A stretch of 36,818 bases of DNA from Gemmatimonadota bacterium (GCA_040389905.1 JAZJZK010000028.1:1-36818), one strand, 5' to 3'. Numbered from the stretch's first letter, positions 2,614-36,698 are shown. Numbers and translations: made by a program. The notes: generated by a model not told the origin, from the letters alone.

Positions 2614-3606
2614 TCAGAGGTTGATGTCTTGCCGGTGATCGTTCGATACCCGCGCGAGCACGAAGGCAATGACCCCACCGACCAACCCTCCGCACATCAC
2701 GACGGCGGTAAAGACGAGCCCCGTCGCCATTGCCGCGGAGGACGACACGCCGAATGGCTGAAAGAGCAGCACCAACGCACCTTCGCGTACGCCAATGCCG
2801 CCCTGTGTCACAGGGAGAATCGCCGCGATCTTCGCCAGCGGCCACACGAACAGCCACACAACGAACGAGATATCGATCCCGATTACGTCGCCGAGCCGGG
2901 CGTTCAGCAGTACGAGTAGGCTCTGAAGCAACATGCTGAGGAGCAATGCGCCAATCAGGCGTGCCGGCCGTTCGCGCAATGCGCGATACGCCTGGCGGAT
3001 TTTGACGAGCGCTCGCCTCCGCCTGATGGGCAAGCGACGAATGACAGGTGTAAGAAGGAGGATGGCGAACGCGCCGGCCCCCGCGACAAGGAAGAGTCCT
3101 CCCATGCCGAGAAAGATCAATCGGCTGCGCGGATCAAGTGCGGTGGGGAGAAGCAGCGCCCCGATGCCAGCCACTGCCGCGAGGCCAATCGTATCGAGCA
3201 AGCGTTCGGCGAGACTTCCCAGCACAAGCCCGCTGCGCGAGCGAGCGAGCGACATCGCGAGCCCGGCGCGAACGACATCCCCCCCGATGATCGACGGAAG
3301 AAAAAGGTTGCCGAACAGTCCATAGTAGTAGCACCGGACACCGCTCAGGAAACTCAGCTCCGCGCCCGCCGCATTGATGACGAGAAGCCATTTGCACACG
3401 CCGATCAGGTGAAGCAGCAGGTACGCGCCCAACGCACCCACCCACACGAGTGGCGGTACCTGACGAAGTGCCGCAACCAGGTCCCTGAACGGCACGAACA
3501 CGAGCAGCAGCGCGAGAATTGCGGCGCTTCCGAGCACACGGATGGCGAAGACGCGGCCAGGAGATCGCTTCGATCGTTGCCCACGTGCAATTGCGTCACG
3601 ACTCAT
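2614..3606 (-). CDS. Lysylphosphatidylglycerol synthase TM-domain (UPF0104/AglD2-like) flippase-type membrane protein
   Basis: Multi-TM protein with family motifs [24 protein letters not shown] and [13 protein letters not shown]. Start overlaps the upstream GT2 stop (ATGA). Confidence 0.85.
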
Positions 3607-4586
3607 CTCTGATCGCGTCGCGATGTGTCGCTCGAGGTGGCTTCTTGGTCGGGAAGGTCGAGCCGGCGCAGACGGTAGAGTGCCTCTTCCATGATCTTGC
3701 GGCTCGCTGAGAGCACGTCAGCGAGAAGACCGATGAGCATAACCTGGAACCCGATGATGATCAGGATGGCCGCAAGCAGCAGCGACTGGATGTGTCCCGT
3801 CGGGTGTCCGCTGACGAAGAACCACAAAAAACGGATGCCTGGAATAACGCCCAGCACGACGAGTGCCGCACCAAGCAGCGTAAAAACGCGGAGCGGCCGA
3901 TACATGACGTACGCGCGCACGATGGTGGCGCCGGAACTTCGCAGGTACTGGGGAATCCCTCGCATCAGCCGCGATGGGCGCGTGTTCGGATTCACGCGGA
4001 TACGCACAAACTCGACAGGCACGCGGCGCGAGCCTGCCTGAATGAGCGTCTCGAGCGTGTACGAGTAGGTGCTGTGAACCAGGGTTCGCAGCGCGGTCTC
4101 GCGTGTCATGGCCCGGAAGCCACTCGTGGCATCTGGAATCCGTATTCCGGATGCACTGCTCACCACCCGGCTACCCAGGCGTTGAAGTAATCGCTTGTAC
4201 CATGGGAAATGCGCGAGTGTCCCAACGCCGCGATCGCCAACGACGAGCGCGGCACGTCCAGCGACGAGTGGTGCGACGAGCAGCGCGATGTCATCGGCGT
4301 GATACTGGTTGTCGGCATCCGTGTTGACGATGAAATCCGCACCCAGACCAACCGCGGCATCGAGCCCCGTCCGAAAGGCGGCGGCCAGTCCCTGATTCCC
4401 GATGTGTCGCACGACGTGATGCACACCAGCCGCCCGCGCAACGTCAGCCGTGTCATCACTGCTGCCGTCGTCGATGATCAGGTACTCGATGACGTCGATG
4501 CCGGGCAACTCGCGGGGAAGCGCACGAATCGTCTCGCCGAGCGTCGGTGCCTCGTTGAAGCACGGTATCTGGATGATCAGCTTCAT
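3603..4586 (-). CDS. Glycosyltransferase family 2 (polyprenol-phosphate glycosyltransferase/DPM-like)
   Basis: Motifs [20 protein letters not shown] and DATSGFRA, plus two C-terminal TMs. Start placed at MKLII (4586), which overlaps the upstream stop (ATGA). Confidence 0.92.
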
Positions 4587-6073
4587 GGGATGGCCGGCAG
4601 TCGGCACGTCACGATATCACCGTCTCCGACGGTACCCAGAAAACGCGGCGCGTTCCGGCAGTACGTGTTCGCGAGGGTCATGATCTCAGGGGCGGAGCGG
4701 GAGAGATATCGCGGAAACGTGTAGACGAGCCACACCGGCCCCCGCCGCCGCAACTGGTCGACCTCGGCGGCCGTGCTCAGCCTCGGCCAATCGCGCACGA
4801 AATATGTTTGAATCGGGTCTGCCGCGGCGCCGGCGGTGATCACCGCTTCGCCCGGTGTCCGCGTTGCGTCGACATAGCGCACGGCGCCGTCGAAGTCCTG
4901 CTTGGGATGCCGATAGAGCGCGGCCAGCGAGGCCAGTGACAAGACCGAGATGCCGAGCATCACCGCCGTCGCCAACCGCTCTCCCGTCAGAGCGCTCGAC
5001 GCACTGAGTCGTTGGGTAATCCAATCGGACGCCACCATGACGCCCCGCACTCCAATCAGAATGCCCGGCCCGATGAGCGCGAACAGAAATCGGGGATAGA
5101 AGGTACCGCGAGCCAACTGCGCACCAGCGAGGATCACGAAGGCGGGCGCCACGAAAAGCCCCAGCGCGACGGCGTCGTTTCGCGCGAAGCTGCGCAGGCC
5201 GAGCATGAACAGTGCGCCGGCAATCGCCACGACGATGACGCCGACGATGATCGTTCCCGCACCGAACCCCAATGCGAGAACCCGTAGGCCCTCGACGAAG
5301 GCCCAGCCCTTGGTCGATGACGCCGTCAGCGCTGACGGCTTGTCCGCGAAAAACGTATGGACCTGGAGCAGGACCGGTGCATAGAGCAGCAGCGTTCCCA
5401 CCGCGGCGAGCGCGAATGCCGCGAGTACGGGCCGTCCCCATCGGTTCCATTGTGCGCGCGGATTGCCGTGCAACAGCAGCGCTCCCACAGTGACGAGCGC
5501 GTGCGCGACAACGATGAACACCATGGTGAGGTGCGTGTACGCGCCAAGGGCGCCGCACGCCGCATACCAGAGCGCGAGCGACGCAGGCCCGCCTTCGATC
5601 AGGCGAAGAAGGCTCCAGGTGCACGCGATAGTAAAGAATGCGATCATCACATAGCCGCGTGCGTTCGTCGAAAACCACACGTGGTGGTAGGACACGGCGA
5701 GGAGCGCCGCTGAGAGCAGCGCCTCGCGCGTCGACGTGAGATAGCGCGCAAAGCCGTATAACAGGGGAACGGTGGCTGCACCGAAGAGGATGGAGGGAAG
5801 CCGGATCGCCCACGCGTGCTCACCGAACGCCGACATCGAGACATGCGCGAGAATCGAGTACAGCGGGTGGTGATTGTCTTTCGGAAAGCGCGTGATCGTT
5901 TCGACGAGCGTCGGACGGAACGATGACACGAGCGAATAGATCTCGTCGATCCACAGCCCGCCGTTTGCGGCAGGAATTCGCACCAGCAACGCGAGTACCG
6001 TCAGGCCGATCACCGTCGTCCAAACACGGGCGTCACCCCGGCCGCGCGACTCTGCCGCGTCGGGCAACGACAT
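4583..6073 (-). CDS. GT-C fold (family 39/ArnT/PMT-like) membrane glycosyltransferase
   Basis: First TM followed by LWIDE, then HHPLY, IRLPS and STNARGY motifs; many TMs. Start placed at MSLPD (6073), TGATG-coupled to the upstream stop. Confidence 0.88.
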
Positions 6074-7485
6074 CAATCCTCGACCACGTGCGTCGCGAAG
6101 ATCTCGCGGTACTTCGCCCATTTGGCCAGATCGAACGAGCCGTCGACCAGGCAATCCACGGCACTATACGCCATGAAGAGCGCGTGATGCGTATTGTCGT
6201 GTGCGAACAGACCCTGGCGTCCGTAGCTCAGGAAACGAGGCAACGTTGACGTCCACGCTTCGATGGTCGCGAGCGACTTCTCGTACCCCATCGTGTAGAT
6301 GGGGTAGGCTTGCCGCAGTCGACGTGTGAACACGGCGACGGGTGGTCGAGGCACTGGAATCTCGCAACGCGCGAGATCATCGGCGACGAGCCGCCCGAGT
6401 TCCTCGTCGCTCATGGTCCACAGATGATCGTCGACGGCGCACGGTACCTCCGCGCACAGCACGGTGCGGCCCACGGGCTCACTGAGCCCGAAATAGCGCT
6501 TCGGCTCGGAGACACGTGTGACCGTGACATTCCCTTCGGGGAAGTAGTGCGCGTCCGTCGAAGCGGTCCAGAAGTCGGTATCGAGCTCGAGGTAGACAAG
6601 AATCATCGCGCGGAACTCGATGGCCTTCGACGCTTCGACCACATCGGCGGGCGGTCCGGGCACCATGGCCCGTGCTGCCGTCGTCATCGGGATCGTCGAC
6701 CACACATGATCGGCATTCAGCGTCTGGCGCTCTTCGCCCCGACGCACCACGACCCTCCACGGACCGTTTCCCTCCGGTTGCTCGAGCGTTTCTACACCCC
6801 AACCCATCATGAATTCTGCGCCGTTCGCGCGAGTGGCGTCTGCATACGCGCGAGAGATCTGCCCATAGCCCTCGCGCATGTAGTAGAACATGCCAGCACC
6901 TGGTGGCTTCACCAATCGCTTGAGGAGCTTGCTGAACGAGCCCGCGGTCACGCGCTTTCTCGCCTGGATTCCCGAGAGCTGAGTGGGTTCGTGGCCCCAC
7001 AGCTTGCGAGCGTAGGGCAAGTAGAAGTTGCGGTACATCGTCGGTCCGAGATTCGCCTCGAGGACCGACGCGAACGTGTTTCCCTCAGGACGTTTTGGAC
7101 CGAGTGCCTTGCGCAACACGTCGAACGCCATGCCGGCCGCGAAGCCCTTGTCCAGGTGGAGAAGGAGATCCGTCGCCTTGATGGGAAAATGGAGCCAGCG
7201 TCCCCGCAGCCGAATGCGTCCGTGGCGGACGCGATGCCTGAAATCATCGCCGAGCAGTTGCTTGATATCCGCGAGGATGCCAGGGTCAACCGCCGAGTGC
7301 AGCCGGTGACTGCCGTAGTCGAGCCAGAGGCCCTTATACTCGAAACTCCCGGCATTGCCGCCGAGCACCTGCTGCTGCTCGATCACGGTGACGCGCGCGC
7401 GTTGGCGACGACGTAATTCGAACGCCGCCCCACATCCGGCGGGCCCGCCTCCGAGAACCACGATATGAGGCTCTGTCACATTCAC
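6073..7485 (-). CDS. FAD-dependent oxidoreductase (UDP-galactopyranose mutase/protoporphyrinogen oxidase-like, glycan-cluster type)
   Basis: Rossmann motif VVLGGGPAG, LGGNAGS, DYGSHRLH, AYPIY and GRQGLFAHDNTHH. GTG start at 7485 or 7479 is inferred. Confidence 0.82.
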   Translation of the reverse strand: MNVTEPHIVVLGGGPAGCGAAFELRRRQRARVTVIEQQQVLGGNAGSFEYKGLWLDYGSHRLHSAVDPGILADIKQLLGDDFRHRVRHGRIRLRGRWLHFPIKATDLLLHLDKGFAAGMAFDVLRKALGPKRPEGNTFASVLEANLGPTMYRNFYLPYARKLWGHEPTQLSGIQARKRVTAGSFSKLLKRLVKPPGAGMFYYMREGYGQISRAYADATRANGAEFMMGWGVETLEQPEGNGPWRVVVRRGEERQTLNADHVWSTIPMTTAARAMVPGPPADVVEASKAIEFRAMILVYLELDTDFWTASTDAHYFPEGNVTVTRVSEPKRYFGLSEPVGRTVLCAEVPCAVDDHLWTMSDEELGRLVADDLARCEIPVPRPPVAVFTRRLRQAYPIYTMGYEKSLATIEAWTSTLPRFLSYGRQGLFAHDNTHHALFMAYSAVDCLVDGSFDLAKWAKYREIFATHVVED

Positions 7486-7643
7486 TCGCTGAAGGTGGAC
7501 CGCAACGGCGCCGCGGCGACGCAGGTTGTCGGGGTGACCCACTCTAACGTTCGCGAGTTCGCTTGAACAGGCCGGTCGGCACGCCGCTCGACAGTATCCA
7601 TGGCAGAAGAGCGCAGTCGATTGGCGCGCAGGTCGGCGATCAC
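7482..7643 (-). CDS. Possible 53-aa small protein bridging two genes
   Basis: GTG at 7643 overlaps the pyruvyltransferase stop (GTGA), and its TGA overlaps a GTG in frame with the oxidoreductase (GTGA). No recognisable family. Confidence 0.3.
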   Translation of the reverse strand: MIADLRANRLRSSAMDTVERRADRPVQANSRTLEWVTPTTCVAAAPLRSTFSE

Positions 7644-8593
7644 GCCAGACGAAACTGTGCGCGCCATCGTTCTATCGCGTCGAACGGAAGGTTGAGTCGC
7701 GTTTCGAAGGGCGCTTCGATCATCCGAATCAATCGCGCCATGTCGCCGCGCTCCACCGTGGGAAGGTCAATGTCCTCTCCCATTGCGCGCGCACGGTTGT
7801 CGATTTCGACGATGATGCTGCGCCTGCCGAATTGAAGCGCACGAATGCCCGCATGAAGGCGGTTACCAACGTAGTCGAGATCGGGCTCCGACTGGAGTAG
7901 CGCGTCGAACGCCGCAAGACTTGGCCGCAGGAAGACGAGCCCCGGATCGAGCTCGCGGGCATAGGCGGAGTCCTCTTCCGTTTGCGTCCAGAAGAACACC
8001 CGGTCGTAGCGTGCTCGCAGCGTCGTGAGAAGCTCCCGGTCGAGATGCCGATCCTTGATATAGGTGTTCAGCGTGGTCACGACGCTGCCGGCCTTCCGGC
8101 TCGGTACCGCCGTACATCGCTCAGGGGTGAGCGTCCATAATGTCGGGCATCCGGTATTGATAACGTTTGCGATTCCCGCCGCGGTGAGCATCCGCAATGC
8201 CTGACTATCGCGCACCGCGTGCAGGTACCGTCGGCTGAGAAGCCGCTTGAGCAGCAGCCGGCTGTAAAGATCCGCTGGCGATTGGTACTGATACCAACCG
8301 CAACCCATGAGGACGATCTCGCTCCGTCGAATCGCCGCGGCCGGCGAGATCTTCCAGAGCGGTTTGAACCACATTCTGGAGCTGAGCAGGTTCGACCCTC
8401 CGACGATGGCGACGTCCGAACGCTGGAGCAGGCGACGACTCCGCGCGCCCATCCATTCATGACTCACGATGCTGTACTGAAAAGCGTCTGGGCAGAGCTC
8501 GTCGATCTCTCGGCGAACTGCCTCCATGATGATCTGGTCCCCGAGATTCGTGGAGGCCGTCGCCGTGTCCAGAAGGGTTACGCTTCGCATCAT
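7640..8593 (-). CDS. Polysaccharide pyruvyl transferase family protein
   Basis: Motifs NLGDQII, VGGSNLL, AVRD, GCPT and GNRLHAGI. Start placed at MMRSV. Confidence 0.88.
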   Translation of the reverse strand: MMRSVTLLDTATASTNLGDQIIMEAVRREIDELCPDAFQYSIVSHEWMGARSRRLLQRSDVAIVGGSNLLSSRMWFKPLWKISPAAAIRRSEIVLMGCGWYQYQSPADLYSRLLLKRLLSRRYLHAVRDSQALRMLTAAGIANVINTGCPTLWTLTPERCTAVPSRKAGSVVTTLNTYIKDRHLDRELLTTLRARYDRVFFWTQTEEDSAYARELDPGLVFLRPSLAAFDALLQSEPDLDYVGNRLHAGIRALQFGRRSIIVEIDNRARAMGEDIDLPTVERGDMARLIRMIEAPFETRLNLPFDAIERWRAQFRLA

Positions 8594-8627
8594 CGCGGGG
8601 CGTGGGACGTCGCCGTGAATGGCCCAG

Positions 8628-9998
8628 TCACGAATCGCTGCTTGACCGACTGAGGAAGATAGACCCCTCGCGTTCGACCACATGGTATTGCGTCAGGGCG
8701 AAGGCCGCGCAGTGCGAACTGCCATCCGTCAGCGAAAAGGCGACCCCGTGCCCGGGACAATAGATCGACTGATTGTCGTGGTACGCGGCGATCATGTCGA
8801 AGCTGAGGTGTGGGCACACCCGATCGAGCGCGGTCAGCGATCCGTTCGCACGCACGAGAAAGAGCTTCGCGTTTTCGAAGTTGATGCCGAGCTTCGACCC
8901 CTCCGGCAGGTCACCGGTCGCACACACGCGCACCGGTTCGGTACCGATGACACCATCGATGGTGATCAGCGGCGTTTCCGGAGCGGGCTTGCCCGTTTTG
9001 AACGCGAACGACGGCGTACCGCGGTTGTCCTTGGCGGGGAACACCGTGACCGACGAGAAGCGCTTGCGCTCGAGATCATCAGAGGCGTACCAATGCTCGA
9101 AATTCCAGGCGGCCTTGAGATCGAAGCGCGGTTGCCCAGGGTTGAGGCGCGTCGTGATGACGATACGTGTTTTGTCCGAGATGTTGACGTGGGTGCCGTG
9201 GAGCGTTTCGGGGTTGAATACGAGCAGCTGCCCCGGCTTGGTGAGAATTTTGTGTTGCTCCGTGACGGGCACACCCTCGGCGAGATACATGCTCACCGGG
9301 TCAAAGGGATACTGATAGCCGAACATGCCCGGGTACAGGATCACCGTGTTGTACTCATCCACGCCGTCGATGCACCACCACAGGTTGATGCCGTCGTATG
9401 AATGACCGTACCATGTGTCGATGTGCGCGCCGTGCGCACGCGCGACTTCGGGGAGCTGTTGATGGTAGAATTCCGGCTTGTAAGCGCTCTTTTGCTTGCG
9501 CCCCTCGCGCGCCCGTGCGATGGCATTGACCAGCAACTTCCAGTTCTTGAGCGCGGCAAAACCGAGACGCGCTTTCTCCCACAGCGGAAATGCGGGGCGT
9601 TCCACGACCTTCGTCTCGCGCGAGACGAGGAACGGATAGTAGATCCGCATGACGATCAGGTGATCGACATAGAACGTGCCTTCGAGCCCGAGATCATCGC
9701 GCCCGACGCGGTACGACCAGTAGAAGAGATCGCGCTGCAGCGTGTGCATGAGGAAGTCTTCGAGCAGCAGAAGCTTTCCTGCCGGGAAGTGCTCGTGCAT
9801 GCGAGCGAGTCCAACCGCTTCGACGCTTCGTCGAACCGCGGTGCCCGCGATCTCCTCGATTCCGTCGAAGAAGGCACGCGTGACCTTTGCGTACATTTCC
9901 TGTTTGAGCGCATACTCGTCGAGGACGAAGAACGCGCCGTCGCGCAGGATGGCGTCGGTGTCGACGCGTGACGTCGTGGATCGATGCGCGGTGGCCAA
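8628..9998 (-). CDS. 2OG-Fe(II)/PhyH-like dioxygenase fused to a C-terminal Rieske [2Fe-2S] domain
   Basis: HID(TWYG)...GQLLVF...LHG...TR fits an HxD...H facial triad with a downstream Arg. C-terminal CPH-x16-CPGHG is a Rieske signature. TTG start at 9998 has GGAGG upstream; the longer ORF overlaps the flippase. Confidence 0.75.
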   Translation of the reverse strand: MATAHRSTTSRVDTDAILRDGAFFVLDEYALKQEMYAKVTRAFFDGIEEIAGTAVRRSVEAVGLARMHEHFPAGKLLLLEDFLMHTLQRDLFYWSYRVGRDDLGLEGTFYVDHLIVMRIYYPFLVSRETKVVERPAFPLWEKARLGFAALKNWKLLVNAIARAREGRKQKSAYKPEFYHQQLPEVARAHGAHIDTWYGHSYDGINLWWCIDGVDEYNTVILYPGMFGYQYPFDPVSMYLAEGVPVTEQHKILTKPGQLLVFNPETLHGTHVNISDKTRIVITTRLNPGQPRFDLKAAWNFEHWYASDDLERKRFSSVTVFPAKDNRGTPSFAFKTGKPAPETPLITIDGVIGTEPVRVCATGDLPEGSKLGINFENAKLFLVRANGSLTALDRVCPHLSFDMIAAYHDNQSIYCPGHGVAFSLTDGSSHCAAFALTQYHVVEREGSIFLSRSSSDS

Positions 9999-10096
9999 TG
10001 GAACCCTCCGTTCAGAGCCAACCCTGCGGCTGGACGCAGCCGCGTGGGCCAATTTTCGCCCGCGAGGCTGCGCGTGCAAGAGCCAAAATGCCGGAA

Positions 10097-11509
10097 CTAA
10101 ACAGTAAGCTCCGGGAGCGCGCCACGACGAATGCGAATGCCGCGCGTCAGAAAAAGGACGAGCACGTACGCGACGGCGCCCAGGGGAATTGCGGCCCAGA
10201 GCACCGTGACCCCGCTCAGTCGAAGCACGAGTGCCATGACGCAGCCCGCCAGGAGTGCGCGCCAGAAGCGCGTCATGCTCGGTATCGACATCCCGGAAGC
10301 GCGCAGGAACACCAGCATCGGAGCGGTTCGCGCGGCCTCTGTGGCCACGGTGACCGTCGCCGCCGCTGACATTCCCCATCGCGGAATGAGCACAGAATTC
10401 AGCGCCAGGTTCACCAATCCCGCGCCGAGGGCGTACCTGAGCATTCTATCCTGCCGTCCCCGCGAGAGCAGAACGCTCTGTGCAACGTTCCTGACGAGGG
10501 AGATGAACATCGCCCACAGCAGTATTCTGAGCGGGAGCACCGACGCAACGTACGTGTGACCAAACACCAGCGAAATAATCTGCGCCGCGAGGATCGAACC
10601 CCCGATCACGATTGGCAGAATGACCGCGAACACCTGTGCGAGAGACGCGTGGTAGAGCCCGCACTCCGCGGCCGCGTCCGAGCGCACGCGCGTGAGTACG
10701 GGCAACAGCATCAGCTGGTACGTGTAGCCCATGTTCATGAAGAAGCTCACCATGGCATACGCGGCGGCATAGTAGCCAACGGAAGCAGAATCGCGAACGA
10801 CGCGCAGGAAAAGAAAATCACTGTTGAAGATCACGAGGCCCATGAGCGCGTTGAGCACCAGCGGCCACGATCGCCGATACAAGAGCAGCACCTCGTCCGA
10901 CCGGAAAAGCTCGCGCAGCGTGACCGTCACAGCCGGCAACGATCGCATGAGCAGGAACGCCGCCAGCGATTCCGCGGCGATCAAAATGGTGGGAACGGAG
11001 TCGAGAGCTCCAGCATCCCGTATGAGCACGGTAATCAGGAGCGCCGACAGAAGCTCTGCCGACAAACGTGCGATGGAGACGCTCCCCGCGTGCTCCAGTC
11101 CGAGATGAGCCCACTTCGTTCCAAGTGCCAGGGCTGGCAGCATGAACGCGAACGCCGCGACGATCGCGGCGTCCGGCTCCGGCAGGAAGATCAGGCATAC
11201 AAGCGTGAGCAGGACCGTCAGGCAGACCGCGATGAGCAGACGCGCGAGACTATACCGCCGCAGCAACTCCGGCAGATGCTGCGGCGCGGCTGCAACGTCC
11301 GAGATGCCGAGCAGGTCGACTCCACCGTCGACGATTCGGCCGAGGTACCCAAGTATCGTCGTCGAGAGGACGATGATCCCGTAGATATCCGCACCGAGCC
11401 GGCGCGCGAGAAACGCCGTCGCGACAAAGGCGATGACGCGCGCGAACGCTTCACCACCCCCGAGTTTTCGGAAGCCCCTGCCCACGGCAGCGTCGGGCGA
11501 AGCTTTCAC
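10097..11509 (-). CDS. Wzx-type oligosaccharide flippase
   Basis: About 12-14 TMs with LARRLGADIYG, VGYYAAAY and LIPRWGMSAAA motifs of the PST/MATE-like flippase family. GTG start overlaps the DAHP synthase stop. Confidence 0.9.
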   Translation of the reverse strand: MKASPDAAVGRGFRKLGGGEAFARVIAFVATAFLARRLGADIYGIIVLSTTILGYLGRIVDGGVDLLGISDVAAAPQHLPELLRRYSLARLLIAVCLTVLLTLVCLIFLPEPDAAIVAAFAFMLPALALGTKWAHLGLEHAGSVSIARLSAELLSALLITVLIRDAGALDSVPTILIAAESLAAFLLMRSLPAVTVTLRELFRSDEVLLLYRRSWPLVLNALMGLVIFNSDFLFLRVVRDSASVGYYAAAYAMVSFFMNMGYTYQLMLLPVLTRVRSDAAAECGLYHASLAQVFAVILPIVIGGSILAAQIISLVFGHTYVASVLPLRILLWAMFISLVRNVAQSVLLSRGRQDRMLRYALGAGLVNLALNSVLIPRWGMSAAATVTVATEAARTAPMLVFLRASGMSIPSMTRFWRALLAGCVMALVLRLSGVTVLWAAIPLGAVAYVLVLFLTRGIRIRRGALPELTV

Positions 11510-12630
11510 TCCAGTGGTGCCGTTCTCGTCGCGCGCGCGAGGTCAACGCGTCCGTCGGACATGATCTGGCTCTGCCGGCGAATCGACTCGCGGTGAATCA
11601 CATCGTAGATCGCCCTCGCATACTCAGGGTCCAGTCCAAGCGCCTCCGCGCGGCGCATGCGATCGTCGAGGAGCGCCGCCCACCGCGCCACCTGCAGCGT
11701 CGTAATGTTGTTCGCCCGTTTTTCCTCGGCGATGAGTTGCACGACCTGCATCCGCTCCGCCAGGAGTGCGACGATTGTGTGATCCACACCATCGATGCGC
11801 TCGCGCAAGGCCTCGATCGAACCGGCATAGGCGGGGTTCGGGGAATCCGCACGCCGGATCGACAATGCGGAGAGAATGGCGCCGGCGCGTTCCGGCGTCA
11901 CCTGCTGCGCGGCGTCGCTCCACGCCTGATCGGGACGTGGATGCGCCTCGATCATCACACCGTCCAATCCCAAGTCCATCGCGCTCTGTGCGACGCTGGC
12001 GAGCAACTCCCGGTTACCGCAGATGTGGCTCGGATCCGTAATGATCGGCAGCGCTGGCAACAACCGCCGCAACTCGATCACGAAACTCCACATCGGCGCG
12101 TTTCGGTATGGAGCCGAGTTTGCCACGGACACCCCACGATGTATCGCACCGATCGATCGAATGCCTGCCTTCGAGAAGCGCTCGATTGCACCGAGCCATA
12201 ACTGCAGATCGGGGTTGGTGGGGTTCTTGATCAGGATCGGTACGTCCACGCCGCGCACGGCGTTCGCGAGGTCCTGCACAGAGAATGGGTTCACCGTCGT
12301 CCGCGCACCGATCCACAACATGTCGATACCGCATTTCAACGCGGCGTCAACGTGTGCGGGCAATGCTACTTCGGTGGCCGTCTTGAGCCCGTATTCCTTG
12401 CCCGCGTCGCGAAGCCAGGGAAGGGCCGCTTCGCCGATGCCTTCGAAGTTGTCTGGTCGAGTTCGCGCCTTCCAGATACCGGCGCGCAGGTAGTCGACGC
12501 GCGCGCCAGCCAGCCGCTGCGCCGTCTCGAAGACCTGCTCTCTGCTCTCCGCCGCGCACGGTCCGGCGATGACCAATGGCCGCCCTTCGACCCCTGACCA
12601 CTGGACCATCGGCGTGATTGGAATCTCCAT
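11506..12630 (-). CDS. Bifunctional DAHP synthase (class I-beta) / chorismate mutase type II
   Basis: IAGPCAAES, RAGIWKARTRP, WIGART, IKNP, HRG, DPSH, GVMIEAHP and SDAAQQ, followed by AroQ-type domain LRERIDGVD...LLAERM...K. Confidence 0.93.
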   Translation of the reverse strand: MEIPITPMVQWSGVEGRPLVIAGPCAAESREQVFETAQRLAGARVDYLRAGIWKARTRPDNFEGIGEAALPWLRDAGKEYGLKTATEVALPAHVDAALKCGIDMLWIGARTTVNPFSVQDLANAVRGVDVPILIKNPTNPDLQLWLGAIERFSKAGIRSIGAIHRGVSVANSAPYRNAPMWSFVIELRRLLPALPIITDPSHICGNRELLASVAQSAMDLGLDGVMIEAHPRPDQAWSDAAQQVTPERAGAILSALSIRRADSPNPAYAGSIEALRERIDGVDHTIVALLAERMQVVQLIAEEKRANNITTLQVARWAALLDDRMRRAEALGLDPEYARAIYDVIHRESIRRQSQIMSDGRVDLARATRTAPLE

Positions 12631-12670
12631 CAGTCCCCTGAACGCGAGTACGGTGCGCGTCGCCGCACGA

Positions 12671-12685
12671 CCCTATATAATAGGG
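12671..12685. promoter_or_regulatory. Palindromic AT-rich element, probable shared -10 of a divergent promoter
   Basis: ccctatATAataggg contains TATAAT (12676-12681) on + and TATTAT on -, in the 117-nt gap between divergent genes. Confidence 0.6.
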
Positions 12686-12747
12686 GCGCTTGCTGCATTC
12701 CACACCGAGCGTTCGTCGCACGAGCGCAGTCGTATTGGAGAAACGCC

Positions 12748-13458
12748 ATGAAGGTTGGAAAGGATATCGAGACCCGAAGAGGCGATTGGACGTTCGGCGG
12801 AAACGTTGCGGATTCGTTCGTCGACCATGTCCGGCAATCAGTGCCGTACTATGATGACGGTCATGAGCTCGTGTGCAACGTCAGCGACTACTTCTGTCAC
12901 GGCGACAGCATCTGCTACGAGATTGGGGTGTCCACCGCACAACTGCTGCGCAAGCTCGCCGAGCACAACGCGCACAAGCCCGGCATTCGCTGGATCGGCA
13001 TCGACCCCGTTCCTGCGATGATCGAGAAGGCCAGGGAACGATGTGAGGGCGTAGCGAATATCGAGCTCGCCGTCGGCGACGCGATGCTCTACGAATTCGA
13101 GAAGACCGACATGGTCGTCTCGTACTACACCATGCAGTTCATTCCACCACGCTATCGCCAGGATCTCATCAATCGCATCTACGAGCGACTGAACTGGGGC
13201 GGCGCGCTCGTCCTGTTTGAAAAAGTTCGCGCGCCGGACGCACGCTTTCAGGACATGATGGTGGCGCTCTACAACGACTTCAAGGCGAAGAACGGCTTTT
13301 CAGCGGAAGAAATCCTCAATAAGACGGCAAGCCTCAAGGGCGTTCTCGAGCCCTTCTCCACGGAAGGCAACCTTGGCCTCCTTCGTCGCGCCGGATTCAC
13401 TGACATCATGACGGTGATGAAGTACCTGTGCTTCGAAGGCTTCGTCGCCATCAAGTAG
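12748..13458 (+). CDS. CmoA-like class I SAM-binding protein (carboxy-SAM synthase homologue)
   Basis: Colinear CmoA-family motifs GDWTF, SVPYY, AMIE, MVV..TMQF, GGALVLFEK, DFK..NGFS..EI..K, AGF and C-terminal F..FVAIK. Confidence 0.8.
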   Translation: MKVGKDIETRRGDWTFGGNVADSFVDHVRQSVPYYDDGHELVCNVSDYFCHGDSICYEIGVSTAQLLRKLAEHNAHKPGIRWIGIDPVPAMIEKARERCEGVANIELAVGDAMLYEFEKTDMVVSYYTMQFIPPRYRQDLINRIYERLNWGGALVLFEKVRAPDARFQDMMVALYNDFKAKNGFSAEEILNKTASLKGVLEPFSTEGNLGLLRRAGFTDIMTVMKYLCFEGFVAIK

Positions 13459-13462
13459 CCGA

Positions 13463-14752
13463 GTGACAAAGCCAGCGGGCGGGTTGCGCTTCGCCATCGT
13501 CAGTACGTTCTATCCGCCCTACAGCTTCGGGGGCGACGGCAGCGCCATTCGTCGCCTGGTCCATGCCCTCGCTCGCAGGCATCACACCGTCGATGTCATT
13601 CACGACGTCGACGCATTCCACACGCTGAGCAACGCCCTTCCGAGCGTACCGCAACCGGAGCCTCCAGGCGTCCGCGTTCACGCGCTACGGAGCGCGTTCG
13701 GCCAACTCTCTTGTCTCGCGACACAACAGCTCGGCCGGCCAGTCGTCCACGGCGGCGCGATTCGCCGGATCCTGAGCCAGGGCTTCGACGTCATCCACTT
13801 TCACAACATCTCACTGGTCGGCGGACCGGGACTGTTGTCGTATGGAGAAGGGATCAAGCTGTACACGGCGCACGAACACTGGCTCGTGTGCCCATCCCAC
13901 GTGTTATGGCGTCACAATCGCGAATTGTGCACGGGGCGGGAGTGCGTGCAATGCGTCCTGCACTATCGGCGTCCTCCGCAAATCTGGCGCGCTACTGGAT
14001 ACCTCGAGCGACAGACCCAGCATATAGACGAATTCCTCACGCTCAGTCAATTCGCTCGCGCGAAGCACGCCGAGTTCGGCTTCACCAGGCCAATGACCGT
14101 CGTGCCCGCCTTTCTCGCAGAGTCGAGTCAGGAACACCCGGGTGCCCAGCCCGCGGCGGCAAGAGACGACACCGCGCCAGCGTACTTCCTGTTCGTCGGA
14201 CGCCTCGAGAAAATCAAGGGGCTTCAGGACGTCATTCCACAGTTTCACGGCGGCGAAGGCGCGCAGCTACGGATCGCTGGTACCGGCGAATTCGAGCACG
14301 AGTTGCGCGCGCTCGCCGCCGGCTCACCCCGCATTCGTTTTCTCGGCAGGCAGAGCGCCGAGCAATTGAGCACGCTCTATCGCAATGCCATCGCCGTCAT
14401 CCTGCCGTCCGTGTGCTTCGAGGTGTTTCCCATGGTGGTTCTCGAAGCGTTCCGCGAGGGCACGCCGATCATCGCTCGCAGTCTCGGGCCGTTTCCCGAA
14501 ATCGTGGAACAAAGCCAGGCCGGTCTTCTCTTTCGCACCGAGAGTGACCTGCAGGCCGCCATCACTGGACTCGCAAGTGATCTCGAACAGCGCAACCGGC
14601 TCGGCAAGGCAGCGGAAGTCGCGTTTCACACGCACTGGCGGGAGCCCGTGGTGATGGACCAGTACTTCGACATTATTCGCCGCATCGCCGAGCGTCGCGG
14701 GCTCCGCGATGTGCTCGAGCGTCTCGATCGCTCGGCTGCGGCACGACCATGA
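13463..14752 (+). CDS. Glycosyltransferase family 4 (GT-B)
   Basis: YPPYSFGG, HFHN, AHEHWLVCP, FVGRLEKIKG and PSVCFEVFPMVVLEA (EX7E). Confidence 0.93.
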   Translation: MTKPAGGLRFAIVSTFYPPYSFGGDGSAIRRLVHALARRHHTVDVIHDVDAFHTLSNALPSVPQPEPPGVRVHALRSAFGQLSCLATQQLGRPVVHGGAIRRILSQGFDVIHFHNISLVGGPGLLSYGEGIKLYTAHEHWLVCPSHVLWRHNRELCTGRECVQCVLHYRRPPQIWRATGYLERQTQHIDEFLTLSQFARAKHAEFGFTRPMTVVPAFLAESSQEHPGAQPAAARDDTAPAYFLFVGRLEKIKGLQDVIPQFHGGEGAQLRIAGTGEFEHELRALAAGSPRIRFLGRQSAEQLSTLYRNAIAVILPSVCFEVFPMVVLEAFREGTPIIARSLGPFPEIVEQSQAGLLFRTESDLQAAITGLASDLEQRNRLGKAAEVAFHTHWREPVVMDQYFDIIRRIAERRGLRDVLERLDRSAAARP

Positions 14753-16173
14753 TCACGCGCGTGCGACAGGCCCTCGCCGCAGCGCTGATCGTCGTCGCCG
14801 CATGCGCTCCCGCGGCCGACGCGCCGACACGTGTGACGCTCGATGCGCACACACGTTTCCAGACGATCGACGCGTGGGCGACCAACCTCCGCCTCTGGGA
14901 AGAAGACAAGCGGAACGACCGATACAACCACTCGATCGAGCCCGCGCTCGATAACGTCTTTACGTTTCTCGTGGACTCGGTCGGCATCAACGGGGTGCGC
15001 CTCGAGATTCCGAGCGGCATCGAAAACCCGACGAGCCGCTGGGCGGGATATCGGTCGGGAAAAGTCCCGTACAGTGCATTCCAACGCGCGCGCTTCGAGA
15101 AGATCAACGACAACGATGATCCTCGCGTTGCGGACACCAGCGGATTCCAGTTCGACGACCTCGATTTTCGGATCGAGCGGATGTTCCTCCCGCTGAAGCG
15201 ACGATTGGAAGCACGCGGCGAGACACTCCATGTCAACGTGAATTACGTGGACTTCAAGTGGAAGCAAGACAGCCAACAGGGCACGTTGAGTCACGCGAAG
15301 AACCCGGAGGAGTTTGCCGAATTCGTCGTGGTGTGCTTTCAGCACCTTCGCCAGAAGTACGGCATCGTTCCTGACGCCTTCGAGGTGATCCTCGAGCCCG
15401 AGAACACGGAGGCGTGGCGCGGAGAGACGATCGGCCGCGCGCTCGTGGCCGCGGCGGATCGGCTGAAGGCAAATGGCTTCACGCCGGAGATCATCGCGCC
15501 ATCGAATTCGCAGATGCGAAACGCCATCACGTATTTCGACGAGATGATCGCCGTGCCCGGAGTGCTCGACCGGCTTCGGACATTCGCGTACCATCGCTAT
15601 CGTCTCGAACGACGGGATGACGTGCTGGCCATCGCATCACGCGCCCGCGCGCACCACCTCAAGACCGCCATGCTCGAGAAGGTCGGCGCCGGCATCGACG
15701 TCCTGCTCGAAGACCTCGTGGACGGAAATGTCTCGGCGTGGCAACAATGGGCCGCGGCGGGCAGCACTGCGAACGCGGACAACGGCGGCTACTATGCTCG
15801 CGTGGAGCCGTCCGACTCCACCGCGCAACACGTGTTCATGGCGCGACTATCCACGCACCTCGCGCAACTCTTCCAGGCTGTGCGTCGGGGCGCAATCCGG
15901 ATCGGCGCGTCGAGTGACAATCCCGACAAGCGCGTCGTGGCGTTCATCAATCGCGATCAACGCTGGGTCGTGGTCGCGCGCGCAAAGGCGGCGGGGGGGC
16001 GTGTAACCGTCAGCGGCCTGCCGCCGGGTCAATACGGAGTCAGCACGAGTACCGAAGCGCAGCGACGAGTGTACCACGAGCCGATCACCGTCGGTGCCGA
16101 TAGCGCACTCACGACCACAATGGCGGAAGCCGGCGTGCTGGCCATCGTCCGATTGCCGGCGGCGAGACCTTAG
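14749..16173 (+). CDS. Putative lipoprotein glycoside hydrolase, GH30/clan GH-A-like
   Basis: Signal peptide with lipobox VAAC, FQTIDAW start of the barrel, LEPEN in place of NEP, AYHRY, MLE, and a C-terminal VAFINRD..WVVV beta-sandwich. Confidence 0.55.
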   Translation: MITRVRQALAAALIVVAACAPAADAPTRVTLDAHTRFQTIDAWATNLRLWEEDKRNDRYNHSIEPALDNVFTFLVDSVGINGVRLEIPSGIENPTSRWAGYRSGKVPYSAFQRARFEKINDNDDPRVADTSGFQFDDLDFRIERMFLPLKRRLEARGETLHVNVNYVDFKWKQDSQQGTLSHAKNPEEFAEFVVVCFQHLRQKYGIVPDAFEVILEPENTEAWRGETIGRALVAAADRLKANGFTPEIIAPSNSQMRNAITYFDEMIAVPGVLDRLRTFAYHRYRLERRDDVLAIASRARAHHLKTAMLEKVGAGIDVLLEDLVDGNVSAWQQWAAAGSTANADNGGYYARVEPSDSTAQHVFMARLSTHLAQLFQAVRRGAIRIGASSDNPDKRVVAFINRDQRWVVVARAKAAGGRVTVSGLPPGQYGVSTSTEAQRRVYHEPITVGADSALTTTMAEAGVLAIVRLPAARP

Positions 16174-16964
16174 GTGCGGACAATCCCTGACTGAGGAGCC
16201 TTCTGCACTCGTGCGGTTACGATCACCTCGTAGTCCGGGTCGAGATGATTCAACTCGTGATCAGTCAGCTCCTCGGTCGCAAGTCCGTGCAAATACGATA
16301 CAGCCGTCAACACGTTCCCCCGCGTTCCCACTTCGATTAACGCGTTGGGAAATGTCTCGACGAGCACTCGCTCGATGGACTGCGCAGTGAAGTGCCAATA
16401 CTCCCCCCAATCATCTCGGCCGAGTCGTCGCCCGATCTTCGAAATGCCGTGCGTCGTCAGCAAGACGACGCCGCCGGGTTTGAGAATCCGGTGCAACGTC
16501 CGGAGCGCGGCCGTGAAATCGTAGATCATCTGCAGCGACTGCGTGAAGATGATGCAGTCGAACGTGTCGGATGGAATGTGGTCCGCGCTCGTCAGGTCGG
16601 CGATGATCGTCGCGTCCGGGCTGCCGGCGGTGTAGTGCAGCACGTCGATGCGACTGGGCTTGCCGCCACCGAATTTGTCGATGTAATAGGCATCGCCGAG
16701 CTCGAGGCACCGGCCCGTGATATCGACCGCGTGTTTCCGCAGGAATTGCTCGATGTAATATCGGTCGACCGGCAGGCCGCGATCGATCCCAAAGATCGGG
16801 CTGATCGGGCTCACGCGGCGGAGCGCCCCGAAGTTCACCGTGCCGGCGCGCGGCCACTGCAGCCGATGGAGGCGCTGTTGCCGGACGATTGCGGCGCGAA
16901 GGCGAGCAGGAAGCAGGAGCTTGGCGAGCGCGATGGCTCGCTGGCGGAGAGAAATTGGCGGCAT
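16170..16964 (-). CDS. Class I SAM-dependent methyltransferase (glycan-associated), paralogue A
   Basis: FGIDRGLPVDRYYIE, CLELGD, FDCIIFTQSLQ, ILKPGGV. Confidence 0.85.
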   Translation of the reverse strand: MPPISLRQRAIALAKLLLPARLRAAIVRQQRLHRLQWPRAGTVNFGALRRVSPISPIFGIDRGLPVDRYYIEQFLRKHAVDITGRCLELGDAYYIDKFGGGKPSRIDVLHYTAGSPDATIIADLTSADHIPSDTFDCIIFTQSLQMIYDFTAALRTLHRILKPGGVVLLTTHGISKIGRRLGRDDWGEYWHFTAQSIERVLVETFPNALIEVGTRGNVLTAVSYLHGLATEELTDHELNHLDPDYEVIVTARVQKAPQSGIVRT

Positions 16965-16976
16965 CCGACAGGAATG

Positions 16977-17756
16977 TTAACCGTTCGACGCCTTCTGTAC
17001 GCGCGCCGTCACGATCATCTCGAATTCGGGATCGCCGTATTCGAGCTCAGCGCCCGTCAGTTCCTCCGTCGCGATGCCGTGGAGAAATGCCGTCGCGGCG
17101 AGGACGTTCCCCCACACCTTCACCTCGACGCGCGAGCGCGGGAACGTCTCCGCCAGGATGCGCTTCAAGGATTGCGAGGTGAAATGCCAGTACTCTCCCC
17201 AGCCCTCGCGCTCCGGAAGGCAGGCGACCTTGGAGATGCCATGCGTCGTGATAAGGATGACCCCGTCGGGCCGGAGGATCCGGTGCAACGTCCGGAGGGC
17301 AGCCCGAAAGTCGTAAATGACTTGCAGTGACTGCGTGAAGATGATGCAGTCGAACGAGTCCGAAGGAATGTGCGCGGCGCTCGTCAGGTCCGCGACGATC
17401 GACGCGGCAGGATTCCCTTCCAGGTAGTGCAGCACGTCGGAGCGCTCCACCTTCTGGCCGCCGAACATTTCCGTGTAGTAGCGGTCACCGATCTCGAGGC
17501 AGTGGCCGCGAACGTCGTGCGCGAATTCGCGAAGGAAGCGCTCGATGTAATACCGGTCGACGGGCAGCCCGCGCTCGATGCCGAAGATCGGGCTGATCGG
17601 TGTGAGGCGACGCAGATCACCGAAGTCGACGGCGCCGGCGCGAGGCCATTGCAGCCGGTGAACGCGCTGCTGCCGAACGATGGCCGAACGTAGCCGGCTG
17701 GGGAGCACAAGCCTGACCAATCGAAGGGCATGGTCGCGCACGGAGGAGTCGGACAT
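16977..17756 (-). CDS. Class I SAM-dependent methyltransferase (glycan-associated), paralogue B
   Basis: Same motifs as its neighbour: FGIERGLPVDRYYIE, CLEIGD, FDCIIFTQSLQ, ILRPDGV. Confidence 0.85.
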   Translation of the reverse strand: MSDSSVRDHALRLVRLVLPSRLRSAIVRQQRVHRLQWPRAGAVDFGDLRRLTPISPIFGIERGLPVDRYYIERFLREFAHDVRGHCLEIGDRYYTEMFGGQKVERSDVLHYLEGNPAASIVADLTSAAHIPSDSFDCIIFTQSLQVIYDFRAALRTLHRILRPDGVILITTHGISKVACLPEREGWGEYWHFTSQSLKRILAETFPRSRVEVKVWGNVLAATAFLHGIATEELTGAELEYGDPEFEMIVTARVQKASNG

Positions 17757-34249: not shown

Positions 34250-34514
34250 TACGGGATTTTCGGACCGAATCTGCAATCGGTCTTCCGTACACCGGCTCAC
34301 TGCGGCCGACCTTATGGGCTCCCTCCGGGGAGAGGTTCTCAGACCGGCGACTAAGTTCGCTCCCGAGAAGAAACGCAGGACAACTTGACGTCGAGTCTGT
34401 TTTGATCGGCGCGCCTTGGGTCCCCGTTCGCGCATGAGAGGCGAACACACCCTGGCGAGAGCGGATGGATACCGGCCCAAACTGGGCGCTGGTCCACCCG
34501 CGTTTGTATTTGTT
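34250..34514 (+). ncRNA. Candidate structured leader RNA upstream of fusA
   Basis: Run of about seven hand-folded hairpins ending in gcggatgga...tccacccgc plus U-rich gtttgtatttgtt. No family recognised. Confidence 0.45.
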
Positions 34515-34574
34515 GAATCGATCATGTCGCTGGCGCTGCTGAAGCCGCCTTCGACCGAACCTGACGGGATAGAT

Positions 34575-36698
34575 ATGGCACGCGATACCGCGCTCGAGTA
34601 TTACCGGAACATCGGCATCATGGCACACATCGATGCCGGGAAGACGACCACGACCGAGCGTATTCTTTACTATACGGGCAAGAGCCACAAGATCGGCGAG
34701 GTGCATGAAGGCGCCGCGACGATGGATTGGATGGAGCAGGAGCAGGAGCGCGGCATCACGATCACCTCGGCTGCCACGACCTGTTTCTGGATGCGTCATG
34801 GCCAGTCCGACAAGGAAGGCGCTGGTCCCGAGTTCCGTATCAACATCATCGATACGCCGGGACACGTGGACTTCACCGTCGAAGTCGAGCGCTCACTGCG
34901 TGTGCTCGATGGCGCCGTGACGTTGCTCGATTCCGTCGCTGGTGTGGAGCCGCAGACCGAGACGGTGTGGCGCCAGGCGGACCGGTACAAGGTCCCGCGT
35001 ATGATCTTCTCGAACAAGATGGATCGTACGGGTGCCGATTTCGATCGCTGCATGCGCATGATCAAAGATCGCCTGAGCCGTCGCGCGTTCGCGCTGCAGC
35101 TGCCGGTCGGTTCTGGTGAAATGTTCACTGGCCACATCGACGTCATCGAGCGCAAGCAGTACATCTTCGACGATGCCACGCTTGGCAAGTCGTTCGCCGT
35201 CGTCGACGTGCCGGACGAGTACAAGGACGCCTGCGAAGCGGCGCGTCACGAGGCGGTCGAGGCGGCGGTCGAGTACGACGAAGAGCTGATGCAGAAGTAC
35301 CTCGACGGCGCCGAGCTGTCGATCGACGAAATTCGCCGCGCGATTCGCAAGGCGACGATCGCCATGGAGTTCGTGCCGGTGCTCGTCGGTGCGTCGTTCA
35401 AGAACAAGGGTGTGCAGGCGCTGCTCGATGCCGTCATCGACTACCTGCCGTCGCCCATCGAAGTGCCGGCCATCACGGGTCACCTGCCGCACCACGACGA
35501 AACGTTCGAAGACCGCCAGGTCAACGACGAAGCGCCGTTTGCCGCGCTCGCGTTCAAGATTGCGACCGACCCGTTCGTCGGAAAGCTGACCTTCTTCCGC
35601 GTCTATTCCGGCGTGTTGAAGAGTGGCTCGTACGTCTACAACGCGACGAAGGACAAGCGCGAGCGCGTCGGACGTCTGTTGCAGATGCACGCGAACAAGC
35701 GTGAGGAAATCGAGGAAGTGCGCGCCGGCGACATCGCGGCCGCGATCGGGCTCAAGGATACGCGCACCGGCGACACGATGTGCGATGATGAGCATCCGAT
35801 CATCCTCGAGGCGATGAAGTTCCCGAACCCCGTCATCGACGTGGCCGTGGAACCGAAGACCAAGGCGGATCAGGACAAGCTGGCGATCGCACTCATGAAG
35901 CTGTCGGAAGAAGATCCGACCTTCCGCGTGCACTCGGATCCCGAGACGTCGCAGACGATCATCTCGGGCATGGGTGAGCTGCACCTCGAGATCATCGTCG
36001 ACCGCATGATGCGCGAGTTCAAGGTCGACGCGAATATCGGCCGCCCGCAGGTGGCCTATCGCGAAACGATCAAGAAGCGCGTCGAGAAGGTCGAAGGCAA
36101 GTTCATCCGCCAGTCGGGTGGAAAGGGACAGTACGGCCATTGCGTCATCAACATGCAGCCCTCCGAGCCGGGCCAGGGTTTCATCTTCGAGGACAAGATT
36201 GTCGGCGGTACCATTCCGCGTGAGTACATTGGACCGATCGAGCAGGGCATCAAGGAAGCGCTGGGCAATGGTGTGCTGGCCGGCTATCCAATGGTCGATG
36301 TGAAGGTCGAACTCATTTACGGTTCGTACCACGACGTCGACTCCAGCGAAATGGCCTTCAAGATCGCCGGCTCCATGGCGTTCAAGGAAGCCGCAAAGAA
36401 GGCGCAGCCGGTGATTCTCGAGCCGATGATGAACGTCGAAGTCGTGTGCCCGGAGAGCTACATGGGCGACGTGCTTGGCGATCTGTCCTCGCGCCGTGGA
36501 AAGATCGGCGGTATGACGCAGCGCGGCGAGGCGCAGGTGATTGCCTCGACGGTGCCGCTCTCCGAAATGTTCGGGTACTCGACCAAGCTGCGCTCGATGT
36601 CACAGGGCCGCGCGGTCTACTCGATGGAGTTCGCGCATTACGAAGAAGTTCCGAAGAGCAAGGCCGAGGAAATCATCTCCAAGGTCACTCCGAAGTAA
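34575..36698 (+). CDS. fusA: Elongation factor G
   Basis: [36 protein letters not shown] and [11 protein letters not shown]. True start MARDT at 34575. Confidence 0.99.

Follow-up and report, generated by a model that had tools for sequence, protein, structure and literature searches.

A Gemmatimonadota glycan locus predicted to use carboxy-SAM and to supply its own prephenate

We analyzed a 36,818-nucleotide (nt) stretch of DNA from a Gemmatimonadota bacterium (GCA_040389905.1 JAZJZK010000028.1:1-36818), referred to here as the window. [quoted passage not shown] From comparisons of sequences and gene neighborhoods we favor, with somewhat better than even confidence, the view that the CmoA-like protein is a synthase of carboxy-S-adenosylmethionine (carboxy-SAM), that the DAHP synthase-mutase supplies its prephenate, and that MT1/MT2 carboxymethylate a sugar of a surface glycan. 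The DAHP synthase-mutase, a spare copy, would feed the shikimate pathway and turn chorismate into prephenate. The CmoA-like enzyme would then convert SAM and prephenate to carboxy-SAM and phenylpyruvate, and MT1 (perhaps MT2) would carboxymethylate a sugar in a precursor linked to a lipid or nucleotide. A Wzx or GT-C route would export or attach the modified glycan. The genes were identified by profile searches of 29 open reading frames (ORFs) of the window (Pfam, NCBIfam), a search of PDB sequences, and fold searches. Loci of relatives are labeled L and genomes G, each with a number.

The CmoA-like protein and its missing Arg199

We found that the protein most closely resembles CmoA. TIGR00740 (CmoA) was its best family, and E. 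coli CmoA (PDB 4gek) matched it with an E value of 1e-33 (phmmer) and 33% identity. A structural comparison with CmoA, proposed in an earlier sequence-only reading of this DNA, gave the same answer: Foldseek ranked 4gek first for a model of the protein (TM-score 0.71), and the CmoA fold with its helical lid, itself modeled at low confidence, and the SAM-binding residues are present. Equivalents of E. coli Y39, D89, D117, E164, K165, Q136-F137 and K198 are kept, whereas R199 is replaced by Thr, N132-F133 by Tyr-Tyr, and the near-invariant Lys197 and Lys225 are new. The protein also belongs to the TglE type. It is 57% identical to the homologue in L076 and ~53% identical to relatives from the P. 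syringae group, and it shares with them EKVRxPDARFQD and KTxSLK; the P. syringae/cannabina relatives read KTRSLK. P. cannabina P0244 is presumably TglE, judging from species and family, and has the same Arg-to-Thr change.

The Thr had been noticed by eye (QKRS in E. coli, NKTA here). Our alignment reproduced it, placing Thr193 at the Arg199 position, and Arg is absent subfamily-wide rather than in the source protein alone: over 81 rows, position 193 is Thr in 49, Ser in 11, Ala in 10, Glu in 7, Arg in 2, and Asp and Asn in 1 each. Unlike in E. coli CmoA, Lys197 (80 Lys, 1 Arg), Lys225 and Tyr127 (both 81/81) are conserved. Lys197, Lys225 or Arg161 are candidate replacements for Arg199; Lys197 lies four residues past position 193 in the same predicted helix, a stretch in which the model is unreliable. 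The subfamily is tight. Its best 120 matches are 71-100% identical to the window protein, the 80 genome loci that we compared are 53-81% identical, and one member has 3348 matches at E <= 1e-60. Members from marine gammaproteobacteria (L052, L054, L056, L057, L058, L066, L070) carry Glu where E. coli CmoA has Arg199, along with Gly at 161, and in 6 of these 7 genomes (the 6 searched) this gene is the sole cmoA alongside cmoB.

We surveyed 50 of the 80 subfamily genomes for cmoB and CmoA, leaving out short contigs and near-duplicates. cmoB was present in 16. A canonical cmoA accompanies it in 3; the other 13 have no CmoA homologue besides the subfamily gene, and in 11 of them this gene lacks the Arg. 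The CmoB residues K91, Y200 and R315 are kept in 11/11 examined from the 13, two split cmoB genes having been left out. Chromosome-level assemblies account for 3 of the 13 genomes, and in two of the 13 cmoB is reported in two pieces. The split cmoB genes of G024 and G035 are possibly broken genes or assembly errors.

Gene context points the same way. In four loci the subfamily gene is head-to-head with cmoB and has trhO within 10 kb; the residue at the Arg199 position is Thr in a gammaproteobacterium (L059), Asn in Halothece (L077), and Arg in two cyanobacteria. The proximity of yceA (trhO) to cmoA in cyanobacteria is noted in the accessible text of Sakai et al. (PMC6599085). L076 is a thiaglutamate-type cluster (TglH, TglI-like, PEARL, MFS, the subfamily gene with Thr, a methyltransferase, and a membrane protease) in which the subfamily gene occupies the synthase position; its methyltransferase weakly resembles CmoB (E 6e-5). 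In a quick tree, tRNA-type members are interleaved with members from glycan and peptide clusters. Because the whole subfamily is without the Arg and replaces CmoA in cmoB genomes, the Thr is a weaker objection than it first seemed. We consider it probable, from these comparisons, that the CmoA-like protein makes carboxy-SAM without Arg199.

The use of carboxy-SAM outside tRNA, also part of the sequence-only reading, gained comparative support. As had been claimed, neither cmoB nor further shikimate genes were found among the 29 window ORFs. In the source genome (85% complete) no cmoB candidate was convincing, the highest PF08003 score being 23.9 bits for a partial match, and the CmoA-like gene was without a second homologue of CmoA; cmoB was found in 0/21 genomes carrying the MT family or the DAHP pair described below. 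The locus thus differs from E. coli CmoA/CmoB (PDB 4gek, 4qnu; tRNA cmo5U34) in its glycan context, in its linked prephenate-making gene, and in that no cmoB was found. It resembles the TglE/TglF system of 3-thiaglutamate in that a subfamily member lies in the tgl-like cluster L076; as far as the accessible reports go (10.1101/338681, PMC9016710), the TglE/TglF acceptor is, unlike the one predicted here, a peptide thiol, TglF was assayed with synthetic carboxy-SAM, and no assay of TglE is described. Likewise, phage CmoA-CmoX-CmoY (PMC12783734) and MccS (PMC10491745) combine, in the parts of those reports available, a CmoA homologue with a new transferase outside tRNA. The phage CmoA homologues are at most 38% identical to the window protein, and the acceptor described there is cytosine (PMC12783734, available text).

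Tandem SAM-fold proteins as candidate transferases

We found that MT1 and MT2 belong to a family that recurs with the CmoA-like gene. Homologues lie within 10 kb of it in 25/80 loci and elsewhere in the genome in 17 of another 43 (at distances of 13-31 kb in the four compared). They were found in 0/6 cmoB genomes and 0/3 peptide-cluster genomes. The two genes stand side by side in Omnitrophota and Opitutales, where the remaining cluster genes are missing, and this minimal pair is also found in ABC-transporter glycan loci (L067). In a quick tree the linked MTs, which come from five phyla, group as a single clade (SH-aLRT 89), L103 having been dropped as a duplicate of L014. In two samples of ~300 genomes each, this clade occurred only in genomes with the subfamily gene, although there were just three such genomes, two of which were the search centers.

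Position 176 distinguishes the linked proteins. It is Lys or Arg in 44/44 linked rows, 4/15 unlinked rows of this phylum, 0/7 unlinked rows from Sphingomonadales, and 0/3 second paralogues. The selectivity of CmoB for carboxy-SAM is assigned to K91 in the available text of PMC4482062. Because a single lysine decides selectivity there, the pattern at position 176 would fit a transferase role. If the CmoA-like enzyme does make carboxy-SAM, we hold with good confidence that the Lys176 clade transfers the carboxymethyl group to a glycan. MT1 and MT2 had no match to PF08003, the CmoB family characterized by K91, Y200 and R315. A model of MT1 (mean predicted local distance difference test, pLDDT, 90.5) returned a flat list of class I methyltransferases, the best with Z 16.0, root mean square deviation 3.2 and 154 aligned residues. 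One further MT match, in L132 (G010:C3:64361-65101), contains an internal TGA and is possibly a broken gene or an assembly error.

The transferase had been sought either in the tandem pair or in the pyruvyltransferase-family protein, with the oxygenase as a hydroxylating step. The first part of this proposal has gained: the tandem pair, as the recurring partner of the CmoA-like gene, is the likely transferase. The pyruvyltransferase has lost ground, being near the CmoA-like gene in only 16/80 loci and traveling with the oxygenase, and the hydroxylating role did not hold up as a general step, since the oxygenase is near the CmoA-like gene in only 13/80 loci and travels with the pyruvyltransferase. 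All 13 oxygenase loci have the pyruvyltransferase and 13 of the 16 pyruvyltransferase loci have the oxygenase, in two parallel sequence pairs; the majority of MT-linked loci have neither within 10 kb. On these counts we rejected both as core parts, and the two look like a separate optional tailoring module. At this locus the oxygenase may still make an acceptor hydroxyl. The pyruvyltransferase scored 82.9 bits against PF04230 (cut-off 25.3), and an R and an R-x-H are invariant in 16 rows; we take the RD and RxH motifs to have their usual meaning in polysaccharide pyruvyltransferases.

An alternative is ordinary methylation of the glycan or its precursors by the CmoA-like protein and MT1/MT2, with the DAHP synthase-mutase a passenger fixed in one lineage. 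Several observations favor it or weigh against a carboxymethylating locus. The TIGR00740 score, 155 bits, is below the curated cut-off of 193. Arg199, the sole residue contacting the carboxylate in E. coli CmoA according to the accessible text of PMC3663124 and PMC4482062, is absent. The lid (residues 162-170 and 187-203) was modeled with pLDDT below 50, too low for placing a replacement residue. CmoB is described as weakly active with plain SAM (available parts of PMC3663124 and PMC4482062), which makes a cmoB without an active CmoA possible. Methylating relatives of the CmoA-like protein, CysG and BelI, are ~25% identical to it. K/R176 counts as a single evolutionary gain, members of the wider MT family are common in genomes without any CmoA, and MT1 had no specific match to CmoB among the matches listed. 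G079 has the DAHP-CmoA-like pair, no MT of this family, and another methyltransferase ~1.5 kb away. However, a plain methyltransferase would not be expected to be the lone CmoA homologue in 13 genomes with cmoB, to face cmoB head-to-head in 4 loci, or to occupy the place of the synthase in a thiaglutamate-type cluster, and the subfamily gene has been recruited next to transferases of at least five unrelated types, as expected of a cofactor supplier. We consider this alternative unlikely.

A spare DAHP synthase-chorismate mutase beside the CmoA-like gene

The gene across the divergent gap encodes a fusion enzyme (PF00793, E 3e-39; PF01817, E 8e-21, 74.5 bits with a cut-off of 27). It is 47-50% identical to copies in aro operons and shares domain order and mutase residues with the Bacteroidota enzymes (Prevotella nigrescens, Porphyromonas gingivalis), from which it differs in being spare, in lying in a glycan locus, and in reading KART rather than KPRT. 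Mutase residues R276, R293, K304, R316 and Q353 are the same as in housekeeping copies, and we assume that this Arg, Arg, Lys, Arg, Gln set has the catalytic roles known for the AroQ domain of E. coli PheA. C25, H202, E228 and D239 align with the P. furiosus synthase; these are presumably the metal ligands, and the set is complete.

Two other DAHP synthases, one with a mutase beside it, and a 3-deoxy-D-manno-octulosonate 8-phosphate (KDO8P) synthase are encoded elsewhere in the source genome, and chorismate synthase and prephenate dehydratase are also on other contigs. Because housekeeping copies lie on other contigs, the window copy is a spare. A relocated housekeeping aro gene, which the sequence-only reading had named as a way for it to fail, is thereby ruled out. 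Other DAHP synthase-family genes were present in 5/5 linked genomes tested, and another AroQ mutase in 3/5 (AroQ-type search).

Nor is the pair unique to the source genome, another outcome that would have refuted that reading; the third such outcome, a plain methyltransferase, was not borne out by the indirect genomic evidence. The recurrence of the pair points to more than coincidence. The two genes are head-to-head in 7 loci (here, L008, L009, L010, L011, L014 and L120), with gaps of 97-346 nt in the 6 further loci, and this is the sole adjacency kept across the 7; every other neighbor is shuffled. The closest loci carry the label Gemmatimonadota, and L014 is from the same class as the source genome. 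Of 300 further genomes from the phylum, 3 encode an enzyme of this type and 2 the subfamily gene, the pair being present in both of the latter. G+C content is 57% in the CmoA-like gene, 64% in the adjoining DAHP synthase gene, and 63% in the genome.

A second lineage combines the same activities. In G144 an Arg-bearing cmoA (241 bits) directly follows an ordinary KPRT DAHP synthase and a stand-alone mutase, and no cmoB was found in that genome; this is an independent recruitment of both activities by an unrelated cmoA. In L029 a prephenate dehydratase-DAHP synthase fusion directly upstream of cmoA may be housekeeping. The link to prephenate supply rests on one lineage and one clearly independent case. 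On the strength of these arrangements it is reasonably likely that the DAHP synthase-mutase is a dedicated source of prephenate. Enzymes of the Bacteroidota type are active in both domains, and their synthase is inhibited by prephenate (10.1101/2021.03.29.437529, accessible text), so we infer by analogy that a prephenate-consuming neighbor would relieve the inhibition. Prephenate availability is described as an open question in phage DNA carboxymethylation (PMC12783734), and the available portions of the reports on the phage DNA (PMC12783734) and microcin C-like (PMC10491745) systems describe no prephenate-supply gene.

It is also possible that carboxy-SAM is used on the glycan and that the DAHP synthase-mutase condenses another aldose phosphate into an ulosonic sugar, or feeds an aromatic substituent. 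The barrel motif is KART in 9/9 copies as opposed to KPRT in 10/10 readable Bacteroidota-type housekeeping rows, and the KPR(S/T) aldose-binding motif of I-beta DAHP synthases is thus absent from the window copy; another role of the barrel is therefore possible. The KDO8P synthase of the source genome reads KANRS, and Pro55 binds erythrose 4-phosphate in the P. gingivalis enzyme (PMC12202928, available text). A literature search on the KPRS/KARS motif returned nothing relevant. Prephenate supply is further called into question by two KART-type genes without a CmoA-like neighbor, in L178 (G001) and L122 (G247), by the 75/80 relatives at which no chorismate mutase was found near the CmoA-like gene, and by the tree: the 7 pair loci group in a single clade, within which a Burkholderia protein is nested, and so count as one event. 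On the other hand, the conserved mutase residues are kept, the head-to-head pair is retained in 7/7 loci, and the independent locus of G144 has an ordinary KPRT synthase with a mutase. We regard another role for the DAHP synthase-mutase as improbable, and marginally less probable than ordinary methylation.

The KART-type gene of G001 (L178:5161-6276) faces wzx head-to-head; this sister glycan locus has no CmoA-like gene. A metagenome scan with the DAHP synthase gave 27 loci, at most 50% identical over full length, with no close copies, and no homologue of a window gene adjoined the DAHP synthase in any of the 27.

Acceptor, neighboring genes and layout of the locus

The least probable alternative, that carboxy-SAM is made and its group passed to a non-sugar acceptor (a small molecule, protein or lipid) that the GT-C and lipid-carrier genes would handle, draws on the known acceptors (nucleosides, peptide thiol and DNA in the accessible text of PMC9016710, PMC12783734 and PMC10491745), on the closest named relative of the CmoA-like protein (76% identical), found in a Burkholderia stagnalis peptide-modification cluster, and on the pairing of canonical cmoA with membrane methyltransferases in this phylum, but it fits poorly with the fusion of MT-family domains to GT2 and deacetylase domains and with the minimal pair in ABC-transporter glycan loci.

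With a sugar as the favored acceptor, we considered an N-carboxymethyl amino sugar produced by a deacetylase and an MT. A deacetylase orthologue is near 14/25 MT loci; it is absent from the window, and a 35% identical relative is on another contig. B12 radical SAM and asparagine-synthase-like genes could, by analogy with phage CmoY, extend or amidate the carboxymethyl group. In Scalindua a gene of the first kind (L012:8587-9918) is immediately upstream of the synthase gene; genes of the second kind are within 10 kb in 10/80 loci (e.g., downstream in L037 and L042).

More broadly, we propose tentatively, at just short of even confidence, that surface glycans are carboxymethylated in five or more phyla by means of Arg199-less carboxy-SAM synthases, a sugar-methyltransferase clade that gained a carboxylate-binding Lys, and a lineage-specific prephenate-sensing DAHP synthase-chorismate mutase. 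The Arg199-less class is possibly freed from product inhibition. If so, high demand in this lineage would explain its own DAHP synthase-mutase and would tie cell-surface chemistry to the shikimate pathway, Arg199 would not define carboxy-SAM synthases, and the annotation of a large subfamily would be affected. Uses of carboxy-SAM on record, as far as the accessible text goes, are in tRNA, a peptide thiol, microcin C-like compounds and phage DNA (PMC4482062, PMC9016710, PMC10491745, PMC12783734). A search of the literature at title and abstract level, covering few subscription journals, found no natural carboxymethylated glycan or enzyme for one. The proposal would thus add a glycan substituent and a natural sugar carboxymethyltransferase useful to biocatalysis. 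The locus contributes a prephenate-supply gene, which would be independent genomic evidence for prephenate as the substrate, and a transferase candidate at residue level. Cultured carriers (Croceibacterium salegens, Polymorphobacter arshaanensis and Defluviimonas sp. D31) make it directly testable.

The glycan cluster spans 2614-17756 and is flanked by rpoC and a PEP-CTERM gene (Table 1). Its layout was reproduced as first described: the 117-nt gap, the 4-nt overlap of the DAHP synthase-mutase TGA with the GTG of wzx, and the start of the GT4 gene 4 nt past the end of the CmoA-like ORF. No sigma-70 promoter consensus was found in the 117-nt gap. The genes for MT1 and MT2 run leftward, converging with the rightward operon. 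For the oxygenase a start at ~9998, the one given by a gene caller, is more probable than 10379; its L008 orthologue aligned over 449 aa. The 474-aa ORF had no match in Pfam, NCBIfam or PDB sequences.

Table 1. Features of the glycan cluster (window coordinates) and related membrane-methyltransferase loci. GT, glycosyltransferase; 2OG, 2-oxoglutarate; FAD, flavin adenine dinucleotide.
Feature	Coordinates	Strand	Basis or remark
LPG-synthase-TM flippase-like protein	2614..3606	-	
GT2, polyprenyl-phosphate glycosyltransferase-like	3603..4607	-	
GT-C (PMT_2) membrane glycosyltransferase	4583..6154	-	same cluster
FAD protein, distant UDP-galactopyranose mutase relative	6073..7542	-	same cluster
Polysaccharide pyruvyltransferase family protein	7640..8593	-	PF04230
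2OG-Fe(II) oxygenase-like domain (HxD...H, R conserved) fused to Rieske ferredoxin domain	8628..9998	-	
Wzx-type flippase	10097..11509	-	start overlaps DAHP synthase stop
I-beta DAHP synthase fused to AroQ chorismate mutase (C-terminal), Bacteroidota-type, spare, KART for KPRT	11506..12630	-	PF00793, PF01817
Divergent gap, 117 nt	12631..12747	.	coordinates
CmoA-like protein, 236 aa, Arg199-less subfamily, predicted carboxy-SAM synthase	12748..13458	+	TIGR00740, 4gek
GT4 glycosyltransferase	13463..14752	+	orthologue within 10 kb in 26/80 loci
474-aa ORF, hydrophobic N-terminus	14749..16173	+	orthologue in 6/80 loci
MT1, class I SAM-fold, CmoA-linked clade, Lys176, predicted carboxymethyltransferase	16170..16964	-	
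MT2, MT1 paralogue (67-70% identical), Lys kept, loop after Lys diverged	16977..17756	-	
PEMT/ICMT-type loci of relatives	L098:701-3433 / L179:7057-9789 (G144); L099, L100, L101; L029:2761-3231		

Related loci suggest other acceptors. In 4 genomes of the phylum, in which no cmoB was found, an Arg-bearing cmoA is followed by a PEMT/ICMT-type membrane methyltransferase; in the G144 locus the DAHP synthase and chorismate mutase precede this cmoA. These loci are candidates for carboxymethylation of a lipid or membrane protein. In L088 (6799-12944), L055, L068 and L083 the subfamily gene occurs with a radical SAM enzyme, accompanied by a DUF692 oxidase in L088, L055 and L068 and by an 870-aa methyltransferase in L088 and L055; a carboxymethylated peptide is a possible product.

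In the window, rpoC (26-2470) directly precedes the glycan cluster and the gene for EF-G lies at 34416-36698. The ~30 kb of accessory genes before EF-G include two PEP-CTERM genes, a SusC/SusD-like pair, and a PlsB-like acyltransferase.

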